Of a stretch of DNA of 32,000 nucleotides, positions 2,301 through 26,132 are shown one piece after another. Made by a program: the position numbers and the translations under genes. Where the stretch lies: the NCBI RefSeq assembly GCF_016938855.1, contig NZ_JAFHAP010000001.1, positions 87,501 through 119,500 of the forward strand, in the 5' to 3' direction. Source of the stretch: Polycladomyces zharkentensis. GTDB lineage: Bacteria; Bacillota; Bacilli; Thermoactinomycetales; JIR-001. Below the pieces are notes generated by a model, which worked only from the letters and a program-made list of their open reading frames with translations, had not been told where the DNA came from and ran no database searches. Numbering within the stretch: position 1 is the first letter of the stretch; every line of letters starts with the position of its first letter.

Positions 2301-3335
2301 TCACGGATACAACGGTAATCCTTCCAAACCCGCCGTTTCCGGCCATCCCATCCGGAGATTCAGGTTTTGCACCGCCTGGCCCGCCGCTCCTTTCATCAAA
2401 TTGTCGATCGCGGCAACGGCAGTGACGATTCCCGTCCGTTCATCCACATGCCATCCCAGATCGCAGAAATTGCTGCCGCGCACGTGCTTGGTCTGTGGCC
2501 ATTCTCCTTCAGGTTTCAACCGAACAAATGGGGCGTTTTCATAGTACGACCGATAGCAGTCAGCCACATCTTGACCGGTTACGCCCGGGTTCGCTTGGGC
2601 GTATATGTTGGCCAGAATCCCGCGGTTCATGGGAACCAGGTGCGGCGTGAACAGTATTTTCACCGGCTCACCAGATTCCGCTGCCGCAAACCGCTCCAAC
2701 TCGGGTGTATGCTGATGTACCCCAATTTTGTATGGGTACAGATTTTCGTTCACTTCGCAGTACAGTTTGGATTCGCTTAATCCCCGTCCCGCGCCGGATA
2801 CGCCCGATTTGGCGTCCACCACCAGCGGGGAAGTCTGAATGAGTCCCTCTTTCAATAATGGCAAAACCGCCAGCAACGTGGCTGTCGGATAACATCCCGG
2901 GTTGGCGATCAACGTCGCCTCGGCGACTTGCTCTTTGTACCATTCACTCAACCCGTACACCGCCCGTTCCATCCATTCGACCGGTGCGGGTTCCCGTTGG
3001 TACCACTGTTGATAGATGTCAGGGTTCCCCAATCGAAAATCTCCGGAAAGATCGATCACGATCTTCCCTCTCTCCAAAAAGGCAGCAGCCCATTTGCCGC
3101 TGACGCCGGGAGGTGTGGCAAAAAAGATCACTTCCCCCGCTTCCGCGATACCGTCAACGTCCATTTCCTCCAAGGTGAACGTGAGGTGTGCCGCGTGTGG
3201 GTACACTTCTCCAAGCGGTTTTCCCGCCGAGGAAGAAGAAACCATCGCGCCGATCTCGGCATTCGGGTGCCCTTGCAACAATCGGATCAATTCGACGCCA
3301 CCATAGCCCGTCGATCCGATCACCACTGCTTTCAC
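2301..3335 (-). CDS. argC: N-acetyl-gamma-glutamyl-phosphate reductase
   Basis: 344-aa ORF with an N-terminal Rossmann motif (VIGSTGYGG) and active-site ANPGCYPTA. GTG start at 3335 with GAGGAGGT 10 nt upstream. Confidence 0.93.
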   Translation of the reverse strand: MKAVVIGSTGYGGVELIRLLQGHPNAEIGAMVSSSSAGKPLGEVYPHAAHLTFTLEEMDVDGIAEAGEVIFFATPPGVSGKWAAAFLERGKIVIDLSGDFRLGNPDIYQQWYQREPAPVEWMERAVYGLSEWYKEQVAEATLIANPGCYPTATLLAVLPLLKEGLIQTSPLVVDAKSGVSGAGRGLSESKLYCEVNENLYPYKIGVHQHTPELERFAAAESGEPVKILFTPHLVPMNRGILANIYAQANPGVTGQDVADCYRSYYENAPFVRLKPEGEWPQTKHVRGSNFCDLGWHVDERTGIVTAVAAIDNLMKGAAGQAVQNLNLRMGWPETAGLEGLPLYP

Positions 3336-4951: not shown

Positions 4952-5737
4952 TTATTTCCCTTGAAATTCCGGTTTCCGCTTCTGAAGAAATGCATCCATT
5001 CCTTCTATGCGGTCCCTGGTGTCGAAAGTCAGACCAAAACAAGCCGCCTCCAACTGCAAGCCGGATTGCAAATCCGTCTCTGCTCCTTGATTGATTGTCC
5101 GTTTAATGTATTTCATGGCGATGGGCGCTTTTTTGACAAGCACTTCCGCCAGCCGTTTCGACTCGTCCAGCAACATGTCGGGCGGCGTCACTTTTTGCAC
5201 CAATCCCAAACGATAAGCCTCAGCGGCAGAAATGATCTCCCCGGTCAAACACCAGTATTTTGCGGTCGCCTTTCCAACCAACCTCGCCAATCGCTGGGTC
5301 CCGCCATATCCCGGAATCACACCCAGATTCACTTCCGGCTGACCGAACTTGGCATTTTCGGACGCGATCAAAATATCGCCGCTCATCGCCAACTCACACC
5401 CGCCACCCAAGGCGAAGCCGTTGACGGCCATGATCACCGGCTTGTCCAGCTCTTCGATTTTGCTGAAGAGCGCCTGCCCTTTCGCCGCCAACCGTTGTGC
5501 TTCGGCAGCCGATTCGATTTGCCTCAGCTCGTTGATGTCCGCTCCCGCAACGAATGCTTTTTCCCCCGCTCCGGTAATGATCAGACAGCGCACATCTTCA
5601 TTTTGCTCCACCCAATCGACCGCCTCTGACAACTCTTCCAACGTTTTACGATTGAGCGCATTGAGCACTTGCGGGCGCTGAATGGTCAGGAGTGCCCATC
5701 CGTTACCTTGTTCCAGCACAATATTGTTCCATTCCAC
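4952..5737 (-). CDS. enoyl-CoA hydratase/isomerase (crotonase) family protein
   Basis: The ORF track gives 4952..6100, but crotonase similarity begins at VEWNNIVLEQGNGWALLTIQRPQVLNALN. GTG at 5737 has AGGGGGTG 7 nt upstream. The upstream 121 codons overlap the neighbouring gene and look like non-coding read-through. Confidence 0.88.
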   Translation of the reverse strand: MEWNNIVLEQGNGWALLTIQRPQVLNALNRKTLEELSEAVDWVEQNEDVRCLIITGAGEKAFVAGADINELRQIESAAEAQRLAAKGQALFSKIEELDKPVIMAVNGFALGGGCELAMSGDILIASENAKFGQPEVNLGVIPGYGGTQRLARLVGKATAKYWCLTGEIISAAEAYRLGLVQKVTPPDMLLDESKRLAEVLVKKAPIAMKYIKRTINQGAETDLQSGLQLEAACFGLTFDTRDRIEGMDAFLQKRKPEFQGK

Positions 5738-5829
5738 ACTGCAACACCCCCTGGCTCGTCTTCGGGAACCATGTCTGGTTATGAATTCGGTGTCGAATGG
5801 TGCTCTTCCTCCCATCTGATCGATCCATC

Positions 5830-6879
5830 CTATTCCACCTGCACCCGTGAACGGCAGACGGCGTTGTACCCGTACCCTTTCCGGTTCCATTGGGCACGGA
5901 GCGGTTGCATACGGCCGGCTGTGTCCGCCGCCCGCGACCAGATTTCGTATTTCCCCGGTTGCAAGGCTTTCCAGTTCCAACTCCATTGGACCCATGCATA
6001 GGGATGATCCCAGGGGCGTTGAAGTAACCGTGCAGGATGCCAATGCGCCCCACGGTCGACAGATACCTCCACTCTCCTGATGACACCCTTCCCCGTCCAC
6101 GCAAGCCCCTCCACCCGGTGACGCCCCGTTTTCAGCACCGAAAAATCATGGGGATACCGAATGAGGGAATTGACGCGGAGAACGGTGACGGGCCGTTTCC
6201 CCTCATCACTGTCGGGAAAGGGATAGTAGTGGTAATCCTCCTTTTGATAGTACCCCTGAAACGGTTCCGTTACCACTTCGATGCGTCTCAACCATTTTAC
6301 GGACGCCATCGCATACCAACCCGGCACGATCAGCCGAAGAGGCGCACCGTGTTCCGGTGACAGCAGCCGACCGTTTTGGGCATAGGCCACCAACGTATCC
6401 GGGTGAAGTGATTTGCCCAGTGATAAGCTGCGGGCAAACGGCCCCTTCTCCTCCCCTTCACCATCCATGCCCCAAAACACGACTTCCCGTGCCGTCGAGC
6501 AGATACCGGCCTCCCGCAACAAATCCCGGAGCGGGATGCCCGTCCATTCTGCCTGGCTGATCGCCCCTTCGTTCCAGGGTACGCCGTATACCCGCGGACG
6601 GAACATGGTCCTGCGGTTGCCCGCGCATTCCATCACCGCCACTACTGACTTGGCCGGTCTGGACCGGATCTCTTCGCAACTCAGGGTCAAGGGACGATGT
6701 ACCGCCCCCACCACTTGCAAACTGTCCATATTCGGCGCAGGATAAGCGTAATGATTGCGACGGTACCATAAATCGTCCGGTGTCATCCAATCCGTGATCC
6801 AGCGAACGGGGGAACTTTGATTTTCCGGTTGCATCGTTACCGTTTCCCGAAACAATTGCTTTGCTCGTGACATTTTCAT
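5830..6879 (-). CDS. sulfite-oxidase-family molybdopterin oxidoreductase
   Basis: Contains the Mo-ligand cysteine motif MECAGNRR and a C-terminal Moco-dimerisation-like region. Start is ATG 6879 (GGAGGGGTG ~10 nt upstream); an in-frame GTG at 6888 is an alternative. Confidence 0.85.
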   Translation of the reverse strand: MKMSRAKQLFRETVTMQPENQSSPVRWITDWMTPDDLWYRRNHYAYPAPNMDSLQVVGAVHRPLTLSCEEIRSRPAKSVVAVMECAGNRRTMFRPRVYGVPWNEGAISQAEWTGIPLRDLLREAGICSTAREVVFWGMDGEGEEKGPFARSLSLGKSLHPDTLVAYAQNGRLLSPEHGAPLRLIVPGWYAMASVKWLRRIEVVTEPFQGYYQKEDYHYYPFPDSDEGKRPVTVLRVNSLIRYPHDFSVLKTGRHRVEGLAWTGKGVIRRVEVSVDRGAHWHPARLLQRPWDHPYAWVQWSWNWKALQPGKYEIWSRAADTAGRMQPLRAQWNRKGYGYNAVCRSRVQVE

Positions 6880-20077: not shown

Positions 20078-20779
20078 TTAACGCGCAAATGTCAAAGAAC
20101 GGACCATTCGACATCCCGCCTCTGCCAGTACGCGGGCACAGGCGCCCAATGTGGCGCCGGTCGTATATACATCATCCACCAACAATACATTCAAAGCGAC
20201 CAACTTTTCGGCGGGGATCGACGGATGCAAATCAAAAACCCCCTCCATCGACCGCAAACGCTCCGCCCGGGATCGCCGACTTTGAGGTGGAGTGGGTGAT
20301 GACCGCACCAACAATGACACCACCGGTACTCCCCATTGCTTTCCGATGACGCGGGCCAATTGCTCCGACTGATTGAACCCTCGCTCTGCCAGCCGGGAGG
20401 GATGCAGGGGAACATAGGAGATGACATCCGGCTTCCGTCCCCTGCGGGCAGCGACCGACACCATCATCTCCCCCATCGGACGGGCGTATCGCTCCCTGCC
20501 CAGATATTTGTACAAACGAATGACTTCGCGGGTATGGGGCGTGTAGGATACTGCACTCCAGTTCTGTATCAGCTCCGGATACGGATGGGATCGGCAATCG
20601 GTACAAAGCGCTTCCCCACCCGCTCTCCCGCAACGACGGCAGTAGGGAGGTTCAACGGGAGAAAACCCGTCGCGGCAATACGGACAGATTTTTTCCCATA
20701 CCGGTGCCCAGGGAAGAGCGCGGACTGGCGTGTCGCAAAACGGACACCTACCGGACGATGAGAACAGCCATCCGATCAT
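20078..20779 (-). CDS. comFC: ComF family protein (competence protein ComFC; PRTase-like)
   Basis: N-terminal Cys-rich zinc-finger region (CPFCDT...CPYCRDGF...CRRCGR...CTDCRSH) and C-terminal PRTase motif LLVDDVYTTGATL. ATG 20779 overlaps the comFA stop (ATGA). The ORF track extension to 21157 overlaps comFA and is rejected. Confidence 0.88.
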   Translation of the reverse strand: MIGWLFSSSGRCPFCDTPVRALPWAPVWEKICPYCRDGFSPVEPPYCRRCGRAGGEALCTDCRSHPYPELIQNWSAVSYTPHTREVIRLYKYLGRERYARPMGEMMVSVAARRGRKPDVISYVPLHPSRLAERGFNQSEQLARVIGKQWGVPVVSLLVRSSPTPPQSRRSRAERLRSMEGVFDLHPSIPAEKLVALNVLLVDDVYTTGATLGACARVLAEAGCRMVRSLTFAR

Positions 20780-22491
20780 CGCTTCACCCCGGGCGCATGC
20801 AGACACCCCATCCGGGATGCCAACCGGTTCATCGCTTTGATTTCCCGAATCGCCCGCCGCTGAGCTTCCGTCCATTCCTCCGAGATCCACCGGACGATCC
20901 CCGCCGGGTCTTCCGGTGACCGTCCCGCCCGTCCCGACATCTGAACCAAAGTGGCGGCGTCCATGACGGTATGGTCCGCACCCAGCACCAACACTTGACA
21001 ACCGGGAACCGTCACGCCGCGCTCCAAGACAGTCGTGGAGAGCAACACGCGAACACGGCCCCGGCGAAATCGTGCCACGATCTCCTCCCTGTTGCGCTCT
21101 TTTCCGGACACAGCCGCACAGAACCGGGCCATTGAAGGGTACCTCCGATTGATCCACTGCAGCAGACGCGGCAAATCCGCCACCCGTGGCACAAAAATCA
21201 ACCCTGGTTTGCCGGTTTGCATCAGATGACGCAAATAATCCGACAACGGCGGGACAGGTTTGCCGCGACTCACCTTATTCCACAAACCGCGGACCCCGTA
21301 CCGTTCGGGTACGGGCAGCGGATGACCGTGAAATCGGGCGGGCAGGGTGATGACGGGCAATTTGCCCCGCCGCGCTTTTCTCTGCCAGACCATCGGTGGA
21401 GTGGCCGTCACCCACACTGCTTTTCCATCGTTGCATAAAGCTTGGTCGATCCCCGATTGCAGCGCGGGATCTCCATACAATGGATAGGCATCCACTTCAT
21501 CAACGATCGCCAAAGCATACCGTCGGTACATCCGCCAGGCTTGGTGCGCCGTGGCGATGACCAGCTCTCCGTCATCCCATGTCGACCGCGTTCCCCCATG
21601 AACGGCCGTTACCCGAACGCCTTCCACCGCTTTTTTCAAACGCGGATACAACTCATCCACCACATCACGACGCGGTGTCACCCACAGCACACGCTGCCCG
21701 CTTTGCAGTGTCCGGCGAACCAACGGCAAACAAACCTCCGTCTTGCCCGCTCCCGTTGCCGCCCACAGCAACAGTATCCGCTCCTGTCCGTCTCTCCAGC
21801 CTTCCAGAAGGGAGGCGACTTCCTGTTGTTTCGGGGTCAGTGGGGGCAAGCGGAGACGAACCCCGTCGGTGCGAACCGCGGAAGCATCGGGGGGACGGAT
21901 ACGAAACAACGGAACGCATGACCGGCATCTGCCCAATACGAGACAATGATCGCAGGTGGCACATGCTTGGCGGCACCGTTTACATTTCGTCCGAAACAAC
22001 CGGGACGGTCCACTGCCGCATCGGCTGCAATGCCACTTCACCGCGGGACCGGCCATTTCGACGGCGGGCACGCATTCCGCGGCTCCCATCAGGCACAACC
22101 ATTGCAAACCCGCACGCAGGGCCGCCGGATCGGGGTCCTTACCCCACCGGAATCGCAATAATGATCGAATTTCCTCCTCCAACAGCACACGACCACCTAA
22201 TATATTCCATATTGCCACACCGTACCTTTGTCCCGGCGACAGATGATCATCATCGGTCGTTTGTTCGAAGTGCTCCATCCCATTCCCGATCAGCGATGAT
22301 TTGGATTGTTCTTTTGAAACATGTTTCCTTAAAACAAACCAAGCTTGTCCAATCGTTTCAAACGAACCGGCTATGCGAAACTCCCTCCCCCGGTCCCGCC
22401 AAAACCGCTCGTCCACCTCAGGAGCCAAACTGATCCCCCAATGAGGAGGTTCTCCTCTCACCGTCGCCTGATACAGCGTAAACATGGCCAT
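20776..22491 (-). CDS. comFA: ComFA-like DEAD/DEAH-box helicase (DNA uptake ATPase)
   Basis: Walker A WAATGAGKTE, DEAD box IVDEVDAY, VTATPP, and a four-Cys zinc-finger segment (CSRCG...CKRCRQACATCDHC). Starts at ATG 22491 or 22485 (AAGAAGGGG upstream). About 100 aa longer at the N-terminus than B. subtilis ComFA as I recall it. Confidence 0.88.
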   Translation of the reverse strand: MAMFTLYQATVRGEPPHWGISLAPEVDERFWRDRGREFRIAGSFETIGQAWFVLRKHVSKEQSKSSLIGNGMEHFEQTTDDDHLSPGQRYGVAIWNILGGRVLLEEEIRSLLRFRWGKDPDPAALRAGLQWLCLMGAAECVPAVEMAGPAVKWHCSRCGSGPSRLFRTKCKRCRQACATCDHCLVLGRCRSCVPLFRIRPPDASAVRTDGVRLRLPPLTPKQQEVASLLEGWRDGQERILLLWAATGAGKTEVCLPLVRRTLQSGQRVLWVTPRRDVVDELYPRLKKAVEGVRVTAVHGGTRSTWDDGELVIATAHQAWRMYRRYALAIVDEVDAYPLYGDPALQSGIDQALCNDGKAVWVTATPPMVWQRKARRGKLPVITLPARFHGHPLPVPERYGVRGLWNKVSRGKPVPPLSDYLRHLMQTGKPGLIFVPRVADLPRLLQWINRRYPSMARFCAAVSGKERNREEIVARFRRGRVRVLLSTTVLERGVTVPGCQVLVLGADHTVMDAATLVQMSGRAGRSPEDPAGIVRWISEEWTEAQRRAIREIKAMNRLASRMGCLHAPGVKR

Positions 22492-22726: not shown

Positions 22727-23134
22727 TCAGGACAACACCTGTATGCTCCGGTTCGGCGAACGGAGATCCATCACCCAAACCCTGCGGACATCCGAATGGC
22801 TTCGCGACGCCACTTCATTCCACATTTCATTCTCATCCCGCACGGTAACCACTTCCAATCCCGGCAACTGCCCTTGCAAACGGGTGAGAATGGACAACGT
22901 ATCATCAACGGAGAATCGGTCCACGCAAGTGATGCGGCTGGACTTCCCCTGAATCCAATGCCAAAACACATAGGAACGGATGACCCATTCAATGGTTCCC
23001 TGGCTGTTTCCTGTCAAGAGGATGAGATGAACCGGGTCGACACGGACGGGACGCCAACAGGCTTTGCCGATGCAATGCAACAAAAACCACATGACGCCGT
23101 ACAACACGATTCCCCATACGATTGATTGCACCAT
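22727..23134 (-). CDS. hypothetical membrane-anchored protein
   Basis: ORF track entry 22727..23212 trimmed to ATG 23134 (AAAGGAGGA, 8-nt spacer). One N-terminal TM segment (IVWGIVLYGVMWFLL), then a ~100-aa soluble domain. No family recognised. Confidence 0.6.
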   Translation of the reverse strand: MVQSIVWGIVLYGVMWFLLHCIGKACWRPVRVDPVHLILLTGNSQGTIEWVIRSYVFWHWIQGKSSRITCVDRFSVDDTLSILTRLQGQLPGLEVVTVRDENEMWNEVASRSHSDVRRVWVMDLRSPNRSIQVLS

Positions 23135-23193
23135 CGCACTCGTCCTCCTTTGCCCACAGTATATGCCGTGGGCATAGACGGGGTGCGACGGCG

Positions 23194-23946
23194 TCAATGC
23201 AACCTCACCCATCCTTTTTTCAGCGCGACCAACACGGCTTGCGTGCGGTCCTGAACACCCAGTTTGTACAAAATATTGCTCACGTGATTCTTGACCGTTT
23301 TTTCGCTTATGTAAAGCACATCACCGATGGACCGATTGTTTTTCCCTTGCGCCATCAGCCGTAATACGTCCATCTCCCGCTGGGTCAGGATGTCCGGCCA
23401 TTCAGGTACATCAAATTCGGGGACGGTGGTTGTCATTTCCCGTTGTTGCCGGCTGATTCGGAGGATCTCCCGTACCAGTTGCCCGCTCGCACGCGGATGA
23501 ATGTAGATTTCACCCGACAAGACCAAGCGTACCGCCTCAACCAGATCTTCCGCCTCCACATCTTTGGGAAGATAACCGGAAGCACCTGCTCGAACGGCTT
23601 CCACCACCATGGTGGTCTCCCGTTCACCCGAAAACAGAATGATCGGCAACCGCGGATACTCCTCTTTGAGTCGGATCGTGACGTCCACTCCGCTGCCCTT
23701 GGATAAGTCCAGGTCCATCAACACCAAGTGCGGTTCGTTTTCTCGACAGGCCATCAATACCGATTCGCCATCCCCACAATCAACAAATGAGATGGGACGG
23801 TTCATTTGCGAAAGGATTCGTTTCACCCCTTCACGAAACAACCGATGCCGATCAGCCACAACCATACGGATCACGTAAAGGCGGCGAGGGTCGTTTTCAG
23901 ACGGCGGTGACTGCTGCAAAGCGGGAAGTGACAGGCGCTTGATCAC
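23194..23946 (-). CDS. degU: DegU-like NarL/LuxR-family response regulator (orphan; start uncertain)
   Basis: LFREGVKRIL near the N-terminus and C-terminal ISEKTVKNHVSNILYKLGVQDRTQAVLVALKKGWV closely resemble B. subtilis DegU. GTG 23946 is the only start with a good SD (AGAGGTGA, ~7 nt). Alternatives 23874 (GTG) and 23865 (ATG) fit DegU length better but lack an SD. Confidence 0.85.
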   Translation of the reverse strand: MIKRLSLPALQQSPPSENDPRRLYVIRMVVADRHRLFREGVKRILSQMNRPISFVDCGDGESVLMACRENEPHLVLMDLDLSKGSGVDVTIRLKEEYPRLPIILFSGERETTMVVEAVRAGASGYLPKDVEAEDLVEAVRLVLSGEIYIHPRASGQLVREILRISRQQREMTTTVPEFDVPEWPDILTQREMDVLRLMAQGKNNRSIGDVLYISEKTVKNHVSNILYKLGVQDRTQAVLVALKKGWVRLH

Positions 23947-24015
23947 CTTCTCACCTCTTCTACCAGCCATACAACGGAAAATTCCGTCGAATTTTCTGAA
24001 TGAATGTCCAGTACT

Positions 24016-24024
24016 ATTCTACCA
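24016..24024 (-). promoter_or_regulatory. candidate extended -10 element for degU
   Basis: The minus strand reads TGG-TAGAAT. The -35 is weak (TTTCCT). Confidence 0.4.
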
Positions 24025-24060
24025 TTATTGACATGTGAAGGAAACCGTTTTTACAAAATG

Positions 24061-24134
24061 ACTGTCTGAAAGCTCACGGCGACCATAGGAAGTACCCTTG
24101 GGGTATTTGCATCGTGGGCTGAAAGACAGTTTTG
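24061..24134 (+). ncRNA. 70-nt extended hairpin with a U-tail: candidate small RNA or insulating terminator
   Basis: ACTGTCT/AGACAGT (24061..67 / 24124..30), GCTCACG/CGTGGGC (24072..78 / 24113..19) and an apical 8-bp stem (24090..97 / 24101..08), followed by TTTT. Two G-U pairs exist only on the plus strand. TTGACA (24028..33), 18 bp, TACAAA (24052..57) lies just upstream. Confidence 0.4.
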
Positions 24135-24156
24135 CCCGTGATCCTCTTCACCGGTA

Positions 24157-24185
24157 TTGTTAGTACAAACAAGAAATGTTAGAAT
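24157..24185 (+). promoter_or_regulatory. near-consensus sigmaA promoter with extended -10, firing into an ORF-free region
   Basis: TTGTTA (24157..62), 17 bp, TGt-TAGAAT (24177..85). Confidence 0.55.
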
Positions 24186-24189
24186 CTTC

Positions 24190-24490
24190 ATCGAGCTGTG
24201 CTCATCCTGCTGGTAGTAGGATTTTGTACGTCATGGTAGGAGGTTCTGGCGGCGAAGACTCCCACCAGGTAAAACCATGAGAGTAAGTAAAGGAGAACCA
24301 GCGTACTGGTAATACCACGGGCACTTCCGTTGGTCGCAGGTACGCCGCCCAGGCGGGTACATACAGCGTTGCTGCAGAACTGCCTGGGACGGGGTGATGA
24401 CACACCCCTGAACCTGGGCGTTGTCCAAAACGGAAACGGACTGCGGACGCTAACGACCCAGGAATCCCACGTCTTCAGACGTGTGGAGTG
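24190..24490. ncRNA. candidate large structured RNA (unclassified; strand unresolved)
   Basis: No ORF with a start plus SD. All three minus frames are open at once. There are dense perfect helices, including interleaved CGCCCAGG/CCTGGGCG and CCTGGG/CCCAGG pairs. Details are in the findings. Confidence 0.35.
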
Positions 24491-24508
24491 TCAAAATCCG
24501 TGTACATG

Positions 24509-24532
24509 AAAAAAACCGCCAAAAATGGCGGT
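24509..24532 (-). terminator. rho-independent terminator of metK (168 nt past the stop codon)
   Basis: On the minus strand: ACCGCC-ATTTTT-GGCGGT followed by TTTTTTT. Confidence 0.8.
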
Positions 24533-24700
24533 GAAACTGTTGGCAAATGTGATTTTGGGAGCGAAGCCGCCTTTCCCGTCGCGACTCCGGCCAACCGGTT
24601 GCGAAGCTGTGGAGAGGAATCCAAGCCGATGGTGATAGCCGGATCCGCCTCCGACAAATTCGCTGGAAAAGCCACCTTTCCCTTCACACGATCTTTCGCA

Positions 24701-25894
24701 TCACAAACCGGCTTCGCGACGCAGCACTTCGGCTTTGTCCGTACGTTCCCACGGCAAATCCAAGTCGTTGCGTCCGAAATGCCCGTAAGCCGCGGTTTGT
24801 TTGTAAATCGGACGACGCAGATCCAGCTGGCGGATAATGCCGGCCGGACGCAGATCAAAGTGTTTGCGTACCAAATCCACCAACACGGATTCGTCCACCC
24901 GTCCGGTACCGAACGTATCTACACGGATGGAAACCGGTTTGGCCACACCGATGGCATACGCCAGCTGCACTTCGCATTTGTCGGCCAATCCGGCAGCGAC
25001 GATGTTTTTGGCCACGTAACGCGCCGCATAGGCACCGGAGCGGTCCACTTTGGTCGGATCTTTACCCGAGAAGGCGCCACCGCCGTGACGTGCATATCCG
25101 CCATAAGTGTCCACGATGATTTTCCGACCGGTCAGTCCGGCATCGCCCAACGGACCCCCGATCACGAAACGGCCCGTGGGATTGATGAAGTATTTCGTTT
25201 TGTCATCCAGCATCTCTTGCGGAACAACCGGCAAAATCACGTGTTGATGTACGTCTTTCTTGATTTGCTCCAATGTCACTTCCTCGGAGTGTTGGGTGGA
25301 CACGACAATCGTATCAATCCGCACCGGCTTGTCGTCCTCGTACTCGACGGTAACTTGTGTTTTGCCGTCGGGGCGCAGATACGGCAAGGTGCCGTTCACC
25401 CGCACTTCGTGGAGACGACGGGCCAGTTTGTGGGCCAACGAAATCGGAAGCGGCATCAGTTCCGGCGTTTCATTGGTGGCGAAACCGAACATCAAACCTT
25501 GGTCACCGGCACCGATCGCTTCGATTTCCTCCTCAGTCATTTGACCTTCCCGTTTTTCCAACGCTTCATTAACCCCCGCCGCGATATCCGGGGACTGTTC
25601 GTCGATGGAGGTCAAAACGGCGCACGTTTCAGCATCGAAGCCGTATTTGGCACGCGTGTACCCGATTTCCTTGATGGTCTCCCGTACAATTTTGGGAATG
25701 TCCACATAACAGGTCGTGGAGATTTCACCCGAAACCAACACCAACCCCGTCGTGACGGAAGTTTCGCAAGCAACCCGTGCGTTGGGATCTTTGGCCAGAA
25801 TCGCATCGAGAACGGCATCGGAAATTTGGTCGCAAATCTTGTCCGGATGACCGGCTGTCACCGATTCCGAAGTGAACAAACTGCGTTTCGGCAT
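24701..25894 (-). CDS. metK: S-adenosylmethionine synthetase
   Basis: [39 protein letters not shown] 25894 with AAGGAGGA 8 nt upstream. The ORF track start at 25900 is an in-frame GTG. Confidence 0.96.
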
Positions 25895-25929
25895 CGTCAC
25901 GCTCCTCCTTTTCCTTCAAACGTAACCAT

Positions 25930-26017
25930 AAAAAAAGACCTTTCCTCGAGGAAAGGCGCTTTGACTTCACCTTGAGGCATCCTCGAAAACGGCGGCAACA
26001 CATCATGATCTATGAAG
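25930..26017 (-). promoter_or_regulatory. metK leader: short helix-closed element plus intrinsic terminator (attenuator)
   Basis: On the minus strand: CTTCA...TGAAG encloses ~43 nt (26017..25965). It is followed by the perfect palindrome CCTTTCCTCGAGGAAAGG (25956..25939), TC and T7. Upstream TCGAGGA can pair with the terminator 5' arm (TCCTCGA) as an antiterminator. Confidence 0.55.
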
Positions 26018-26132
26018 CTGTTGACCGTGCACAAACCGTTTCCATTCGGTCTGACCTATATCAATATATAGGATAGCGAAAACGGATGGGAAAGACAACC
26101 CTTCTTTTCCCTTTTTCGACAGGATTCGATTC

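Follow-up and report, generated by a model that had tools for sequence, protein, structure and literature searches.

Introduction

IS608 of Helicobacter pylori, the reference element of the IS200/IS605 family, takes the tetranucleotide TTAC as its target, with insertion on the 3' side, and has TCAA at the extremity of its right end. Here we report the analysis of an element at the same motif in Polycladomyces zharkentensis, located in a 32,000-nt stretch of contig NZ_JAFHAP010000001.1 (hereafter, the window, in which all positions are counted from the first letter). Positions 24055-24494, between metK and a degU-like gene, are almost certainly a non-autonomous, protein-less member of the IS200/IS605 family (IS605 group) that carries only an omega RNA, i.e. 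a transposon without open reading frames (ORFs) of the kind termed palindrome-associated transposable element (PATE). Like IS608, this element has subterminal imperfect hairpins, lacks inverted repeats and has produced no target duplication, whereas IS608 encodes both tnpA and tnpB and its hairpins are unrelated in sequence to those found here.

Elements of this kind have already been described in Geobacillus, and the window copy is no new class of RNA. The ISGst1-5 elements of G. stearothermophilus include native omega-RNA-only elements and PATEs, and their excision by TnpA and the cutting of the donor joint by TnpB were described (Meers et al. 2023, PMC10055086). The window element shares with them the absence of ORFs, end hairpins in common with relatives that bear tnpA or tnpB, a TnpB-type omega RNA extending exactly up to the right end, seamless insertion beside a short motif and, by analogy, a presumed dependence on TnpA and TnpB supplied in trans. 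It differs in its host, a member of the Thermoactinomycetaceae, and in the flanking motif, which is TTAC here and TTTAT for TnpB2 of ISGst2 (PMC10055086). A further difference is the membership of the window copy in a long subfamily, which was found in four places only and is marked by a 5' module of 113 nt and a promoter-like site within the left end. The Geobacillus TnpA was reported to be inactive on IS608 ends (Meers et al., PMC10055086).

The omega RNA of ISDra2 from Deinococcus radiodurans has a 116-nt scaffold, the pseudoknot of which has been solved (Nakagawa et al. 2023, PMC10097598). Both RNAs are multi-stem scaffolds placed at the 3' end of the element and followed by a guide derived from the flank, with a length of about 150-165 nt in our case. 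A pseudoknot can be drawn in both between the bases directly preceding the guide and a segment located some 90-100 nt further upstream; for the element studied here this pairing is predicted and invariant. In contrast to ISDra2, the upstream arm of this candidate pseudoknot lies in a hairpin loop and no tnpB is adjacent; no sequence similarity between the two RNAs was detected. Miniature inverted-repeat transposable elements (MITEs) and repeats of the REP/BIME type are similarly short, non-coding, structured, strain-variable and intergenic near terminators. However, MITEs are characterized by terminal inverted repeats and target duplications, while the window element has neither and contains a guide-RNA scaffold.

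In this study, we determined the identity, boundaries, strand and structure of the element by comparison with empty sites in related genomes and with homologous RNAs linked to tnpB genes. A preliminary description, made from the letters of the window alone, had proposed a free-standing, unclassified structured RNA in about 24157-24500. The element opens no new question; its value is one of annotation, since a 440-bp stretch that resembles a new structured RNA proved to be a transposon relic. Polycladomyces, a thermophilic actinomycete-like genus of Bacillota, is added by this analysis to the hosts of omega-RNA-only elements.

A seamless 440-bp insertion between metK and the degU-like gene

Junctions in blastn alignments revealed that positions 24055-24494 (440 bp) are missing exactly from P. 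abyssicola (L082/L083/L084; labels of this form denote our comparison loci), from P. subterraneus (L091) and from the metagenome relatives L197 and L198. The joined flanks of the window, ...CGTTTTTAC|AATCCGTGTACATG..., align without gaps to the empty sites of L082, L084, L091, L197 and L198, and thus the element is a seamless 440-bp insertion on the 3' side of TTAC (24051-24054, plus strand), the target or transposon-adjacent motif directly 5' of the left end. The unit is larger than the extent originally given. No target-site duplication is present when the flanks are compared with the empty sites, and a search for inverted repeats found none at the termini of the element. On the latter ground a MITE with terminal inverted repeats was rejected. 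Since L198, which is 96-98% identical to the window at the DNA level, keeps an empty site, the insertion must be very recent, so that TnpA excision and TnpB homing could be studied at this locus in a natural setting.

Seamless insertion, the TTAC motif, the end hairpins described below and a right end finishing in GGAGTGTCAA are the defining traits of IS200/IS605 elements. As the element has neither its own tnpA nor its own tnpB, we file it as the ORF-less form only.

The occupied site reads TTAC, and the empty sites of L082, L091, L197 and L198 read GTAC or TTGC. Either TTAC arose in the lineage of the window before the insertion, or cutting by TnpB selects against those empty sites that keep TTAC.

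That the region is non-coding, as initially proposed, agrees with the ORF list: positions 23971-24700 hold short ORFs only, and a Pfam search with every small ORF of the metK-degU region gave zero matches, on which ground a small protein was rejected. The three overlapping minus-strand ORFs noted at 24188-24428, one in each frame, are present in the list. Together with a position upstream of a degU-like gene, these simultaneously open frames could be taken for a degenerate degS kinase gene or another protein-coding remnant. Yet the translations of the three frames have no Pfam match, comparison with the sister strains shows a clean insertion here, and no kinase gene occurs between metK and the regulator in any Thermoactinomycetaceae locus that we fetched, so that the assignment of this spacer to a degS slot does not hold. 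We regard the likelihood of a coding remnant as negligible.

The omega RNA scaffold

A covariance model, R1, was built from eight RNAs adjacent to tnpB genes, with the window left out. Its single match in the 32 kb, at 24330-24494, extended over the full length of the model (positions 1-152) and had a score of 157 bits (E 2.5e-40), with the plus strand alone being recognized; the empty-site relatives gave no match to R1. The matched segment is the scaffold of a TnpB omega RNA, also named right-end element RNA (reRNA). Its last position, 24494, coincides with the right boundary of the transposon, and the flanks of the homologues diverge immediately after the TCAA.

The structure of the scaffold is nested and comprises the helices 24348-56/24380-88, 24391-94/24405-08, 24413-21/24453-62, 24423-26/24445-48, 24431-32/24437-38 and 24465-73/24478-87, all on the plus strand. 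In 20 distinct homologues it was 98.3% paired, with 14 pairs showing changes on both sides; none of 500 shuffles was as good, and slid controls were 32-47% paired. The region as a whole folds far better than its shuffled versions on either strand (z -4.47 on plus and -4.43 on minus). The prediction of a structured RNA was borne out by both folding, with z of about -4.5 on both strands, and covariation. The many G-U pairs in the conserved helices, which become A-C mismatches on the other strand, and the plus-only match of R1 identify plus as the RNA strand. This settles the strand, initially called ambiguous, in favor of the one to which the promoter-like site had pointed.

In contrast, the particular tertiary model first put forward did not survive comparison. 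The complementary blocks listed in the preliminary description were all found at their assigned positions in a base-by-base check, except for CCCAGG, which is located at 24457-24462 and not at 24447-24452. The proposed interleaved pseudoknot of 24346-53/24413-20 and 24383-88/24457-62 was only 73% paired in the 20 homologues, with no compensatory change, and was no better than shuffles. The four CCCAGG/CCTGGG blocks instead pair as nested neighbors, 24348-56/24380-88 and 24413-21/24453-62, with compensatory changes. Likewise, the suggested long-range pairing of 24325-33 with 24425-35 depends on 24306-24329 (plus strand; columns 1-24 of alignment A2), a segment that supplies the TTCCGTTGG arm, is specific to the window and is unaligned in the 19 other homologues.

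A pseudoknot is nevertheless plausible with a different pair. RNAalifold on alignment A2 (columns 95-100/186-191) proposed as its 5' arm the segment UGACAC at 24398-24403 (plus strand), the loop of hairpin 24391-94/24405-08, which is complementary to GUGUCA at 24488-24493, just 5' of the guide. The two segments are complementary in 19 or 20 of the 20 sequences (98.3% of cells paired), and are invariant, with 0 compensatory changes; a pseudoknot 24398-24403/24488-24493 is possible and would have the topology of that in the ISDra2 RNA.

Strong folding z-scores, the lack of any ORF and the lack of an Rfam match are also what one would expect of a free-standing, unclassified non-coding RNA gene, riboswitch-like or RNase-P-like, with its own promoter and an interleaved pseudoknot, as the preliminary description saw it. 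Indeed, Rfam 15 gave 0 matches at the gathering threshold in the whole window, and the best match in 23900-24750, searched to E <= 10, had E 2.1, in agreement with the original statement that none of a list of riboswitch and other RNA core motifs could be matched by eye. However, the transposon ends, the TTAC motif, the seamless presence or absence of the unit and its homology to tnpB-linked RNAs explain the whole of it, and the pseudoknot proposed for such a gene shows no covariation. A free-standing RNA gene is therefore extremely unlikely. An Rfam match had been named as the route to reclassification; with none obtained, it is R1, derived from tnpB-linked RNAs, by which the element is assigned to a known kind. 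This clade of TnpB guide RNAs is not covered by any model of Rfam 15, and R1 in combination with the end motifs (TTAC, the left-end hairpin consensus and GGAGTGTCAA) would allow such elements to be masked or annotated. ARAGORN predicted neither a tRNA nor a tmRNA. A group II intron or a retron was considered and rejected, as there was no Rfam match and no reverse transcriptase nearby.

Ends of the element

The left end contains a subterminal hairpin, ACTGTCTGAAAGCTCACGG ... CGTGGGCTGAAAGACAGT (24061-24130, plus strand; inverted repeat I3), the loop of which carries an insertion of about 33 nt (24080-24112) specific to the window. The corresponding motif GTCTGAAAGCCCACGG..CGTGGGATGAAAGAC stands upstream of tnpA in L123 and L137 and recurs in the ORF-less copies L106 and L170; the hairpin motif is also common to L178 and L155. 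The consensus of the family is GTCTGAAAGCyCACGG..CGTGGGmTGAAAGAC. As single-stranded DNA, the left end of the window folds like that of L123 (z -3.2). Most of the left ends identified are preceded by TTAC, namely those of the window, L170, L178, L106 and L137 and, by direct reading, of L043 and L167/L177; in L155 and L123 it is replaced by TTCAC or TTCAG.

At the right end, the subterminal hairpin CCCACGTC-TTCA-GACGTG(T)GG (24465-24487, plus strand) was predicted as a DNA fold and is at the same time the last helix of the RNA. It is kept in the homologues with compensatory changes, alignment columns 170/177 switching between CG, GC, UA and AU. The terminus GUGUCAA (24488-24494, plus strand) combines the 3' arm of the candidate pseudoknot (24488-24493) with the TCAA cleavage motif (24491-24494). 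The right end could be read in 35 family copies, and in 34 of them GGAGTGTCAA is the last shared sequence before the flanks diverge; the sole exception is L043, which ends in CTA.

Relatives with and without tnpB

Viral and metagenome contigs were searched for DNA patterns taken from the blocks conserved between the window and L043 copies, followed by a profile search. In the latter, the 3' 110-190 nt of the element were found to recur directly after genes of about 350-375 aa, which encode TnpB, as judged from their matches to Pfam OrfB_IS605 and Cas12f1-like_TNB. Such tnpB-linked examples include L123, L137, L141, L144, L178, L176, L155 and a Bacillus thuringiensis plasmid, and a 132-aa TnpA (Pfam Y1_Tnp) often precedes tnpB. 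In the plasmid collection only the 3' core was matched, on the B. thuringiensis plasmid 25 bp after an annotated transposase. The TnpB of L123 is 89-94% identical to TnpBs of Geobacillus; among the matches listed, the nearest named hosts of the family TnpBs were Aneurinibacillus, Thermoflavimicrobium, Kroppenstedtia and Geobacillus.

ORF-less copies occur in two sizes. Minimal copies of about 245 bp, in which the left-end hairpin is fused to the RNA, are present in L167 and L177, and the long architecture of the window is found in L170, in L106 and, decayed, in L043. A blastn search of the phage collection with the whole element gave no match.

Two further copies were observed in unusual settings. 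The phage-like contig L106 (IMG/VR UViG_3300032083_002760) harbors a long omega-RNA element without ORFs at 7586-~7990 on the minus strand, as well as a 408-aa ORF (5467-6693) that is terminase-like by reading of the sequence; guide-only elements may ride on phages. In L154, a Bacillus carboniphilus plasmid (NZ_CP129015.1), the omega-RNA model is matched over its full length at 2890-3036, beneath a coding sequence for a hypothetical protein on the opposite strand (2917-3303), and no tnpB is annotated nearby. This coding sequence is probably a mis-annotation over an ORF-less element.

Promoter-like site, 5' module and predicted guide

Inside the left end, a promoter-like site directed toward the RNA part (TTGTTA, 17 bp, TGtTAGAAT; 24157-24185, plus strand) is present as originally reported and agrees with the consensus at 9 of 12 positions. 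By itself it is not above chance, with 3 sites in the region against 2.4 +/- 1.5 expected. At the equivalent position L170 has TTGCCA-17-TATAAT (11/12), while L106 keeps the TAGAAT of the -10 box alone, without a match in the promoter scan, and L043 has no promoter.

The promoter-like site is followed by the 113-nt 5' module of the long ORF-less subfamily (24193-24305, plus strand), consisting of the hairpin GAGCtgtGCTC and further hairpins at 24231-24280 and 24297-24310. A search by nhmmer with a four-sequence profile located this module in four copies alone, those of the window, L043, L170 and L106, whereas copies bearing tnpB always lacked it. Its consensus structure is weak (-2.3 kcal/mol, 4 sequences). 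The motif of the module had 13 matches in viral contigs, of which L106 alone is real and the other 12 are without an R1 match.

By the architecture of TnpB omega RNAs (PMC10055086, PMC10097598) and from the boundary of the element, the flank just outside the right end, AATCCGTGTACATGAA (24495-24510, plus strand), is the predicted guide. Such a guide would be expected to match the donor joint in its empty state, TTAC|AATCCGTG....

By analogy with the Geobacillus elements (PMC10055086), the following mechanism can be proposed. The promoter at 24157-24185 in the left end would drive plus-strand transcription through the 5' module and the scaffold into the flank, yielding an omega RNA with the guide AATCCGTGTACATGAA. 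This RNA would be bound in trans by a TnpB that a full-length relative encodes at another place in the genome, and the complex would cut copies of the locus that have lost the element, recognized by TTAC and the match to the guide, so that recombination restores it. A Y1 TnpA, also acting in trans, would excise the element as single-stranded DNA by means of its end hairpins and re-insert it. As a side effect, the plus-strand transcript would run antisense into the metK terminator.

An active element or an inert copy

Two short-read contigs of the same strain, identical to the window, break off within the element: L001 ends at 24104, 50 nt inside it, and L196 starts at 24466, 29 nt inside it. 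Such ends are what a multi-copy repeat would produce, and they hint that the element is present in several copies.

Several observations weigh against a functional omega-RNA-only transposon. The promoter is a consensus match only, no U-tract terminator was found on the plus strand after the element, and the 113-nt 5' module has no explained role. The multi-copy inference comes solely from the positions of assembly breaks. No tnpA or tnpB was detected by tblastn in the 32-kb window, and no protein named as Polycladomyces was among the best 120 relatives listed for each of two family TnpBs, which is a weak negative; any partner nuclease or transposase in the genome is thus putative. In addition, the 33-nt insertion in the left-end loop, a 15-nt insertion in a scaffold loop and the extra segment of 24 nt upstream of the scaffold might impair mobility or TnpB binding.

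The same element, with the same descent, could accordingly be an inert fossil that produces no useful transcript, has no TnpA or TnpB partner and is decaying in the spacer. The missing tnpA and tnpB in the window, the lack of a Polycladomyces TnpB among the relatives listed, and the insertions that interrupt the scaffold and the loop of the left-end hairpin would fit such a fossil, as would its sister copy in L043, which is clearly decayed. On the other hand, the scaffold is an intact match to R1 from end to end (157 bits) in which no helix is left unpaired, a relative at 96-98% DNA identity with an empty site dates the insertion as very recent, the promoter-like site is kept, and the same-strain contigs break inside the element as they would at a repeat. 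We consider a dead copy possible, though a good deal less probable than not. If the partners are absent from the genome, the omega-RNA-only transposon would be a recent but stranded relic.

A second copy between metK and degU, and possible host use

A scan of GTDB genomes based on degU covered 80 loci (identity <=48%) and returned a homologue in L043 only. In this metagenome-assembled genome of the Thermoactinomycetaceae, the homologue (5386-5764; nhmmer E 1.5e-23) is likewise situated between metK and degU. It occupies a different TTAC site, its orientation to metK and degU is opposite to that in the window, and a relative of L043 is without it. The lineages of the window and of L043 acquired the element independently of each other. 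An invertible segment was rejected as an explanation for the differing orientations, as the insertion points and flanks differ too and each copy has its own empty-site relative.

Decay is evident in the L043 copy, which has a degenerate left end, the right end CTA and an R1 score of 78.8 bits. It lies between metK and the metK terminator, and would for this reason be co-transcribed with metK.

The recurrence of one subfamily in the same metK-degU spacer of a second genus-level lineage raises the question of exaptation, in which the RNA would serve as a guide for a nuclease-dead TnpB-like repressor whose gene lies elsewhere, or as an antisense RNA to the 3' end of metK that tunes metK or degU. 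The promoter-like site of the element, from which a plus-strand transcript would be antisense to the metK terminator, would suit such a role, and TnpB-derived repressors with omega-like guides are known. Yet the two lineages differ in insertion point and carry the element in opposite orientations to metK and degU, the closest relatives have no element at all, no TnpB-like gene is adjacent, and the guide region is simply flank, as in any transposon of this type. A regulatory RNA recruited by the host is therefore very unlikely. With somewhat better, but still low, probability, the long ORF-less form could be a guide-only mobile cassette and not a chance product of deletion, a hyper-parasite that uses the TnpA of others and delivers its own guide into their TnpB, or, in Polycladomyces, an orphan guide that the host is starting to use near metK and degU. 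If the cassette reading is true, its selection would account for the presence of the long form in a metagenome contig, a phage-like contig and two lineages of Thermoactinomycetaceae.

Host genes and neighboring features

According to the ORF list and Pfam, the genes around the omega-RNA-only transposon are all encoded on the minus strand in the order metK (24701-25900), the degU-like response regulator (23194-23970; Pfam Response_reg and GerE), a 161-aa protein without a Pfam match (22727-23212) and a comFA-like helicase (20776-22491). The metK protein shares 100% identity with its counterpart in Polycladomyces sp. WAk; exact-protein look-ups of the window degU and metK returned a cut contig or nothing. 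The intrinsic terminator of metK (24515-24532, minus strand) belongs to the host sequence outside the element and is kept in the empty-site relatives; the right end of the element faces it across a gap of 20 bp.

The Thermoactinomycetaceae loci fetched via metK homologues contain throughout an S8 peptidase or LytR-type genes, metK, the response regulator, a small protein and comFA, with a metK-regulator spacer of about 140-430 bp in those without the element. An orphan degU-like regulator upstream of comFA is the norm in this family.

Between the metK stop codon and the terminator, about 80 nt (24548-24628) do not align to P. abyssicola and P. subterraneus although both flanks do; they are part of a 170-nt stretch and represent a variable segment of the 3' untranslated region. 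At the other end of the gene, the metK leader (25901-26092, minus strand) has a promoter-like site at 26092..26063 and a hairpin with a U-run, resembling a terminator, at 25957..25938, immediately upstream of the metK ribosome-binding site. A search of the leader against Rfam at E <= 1 detected neither a SAM riboswitch nor another family. The hairpin, CTTTCCTC..GGAAAG, is kept in six Thermoactinomycetaceae loci, the leader upstream of it being poorly conserved, and the metK leader looks like an attenuator without a recognized sensor.

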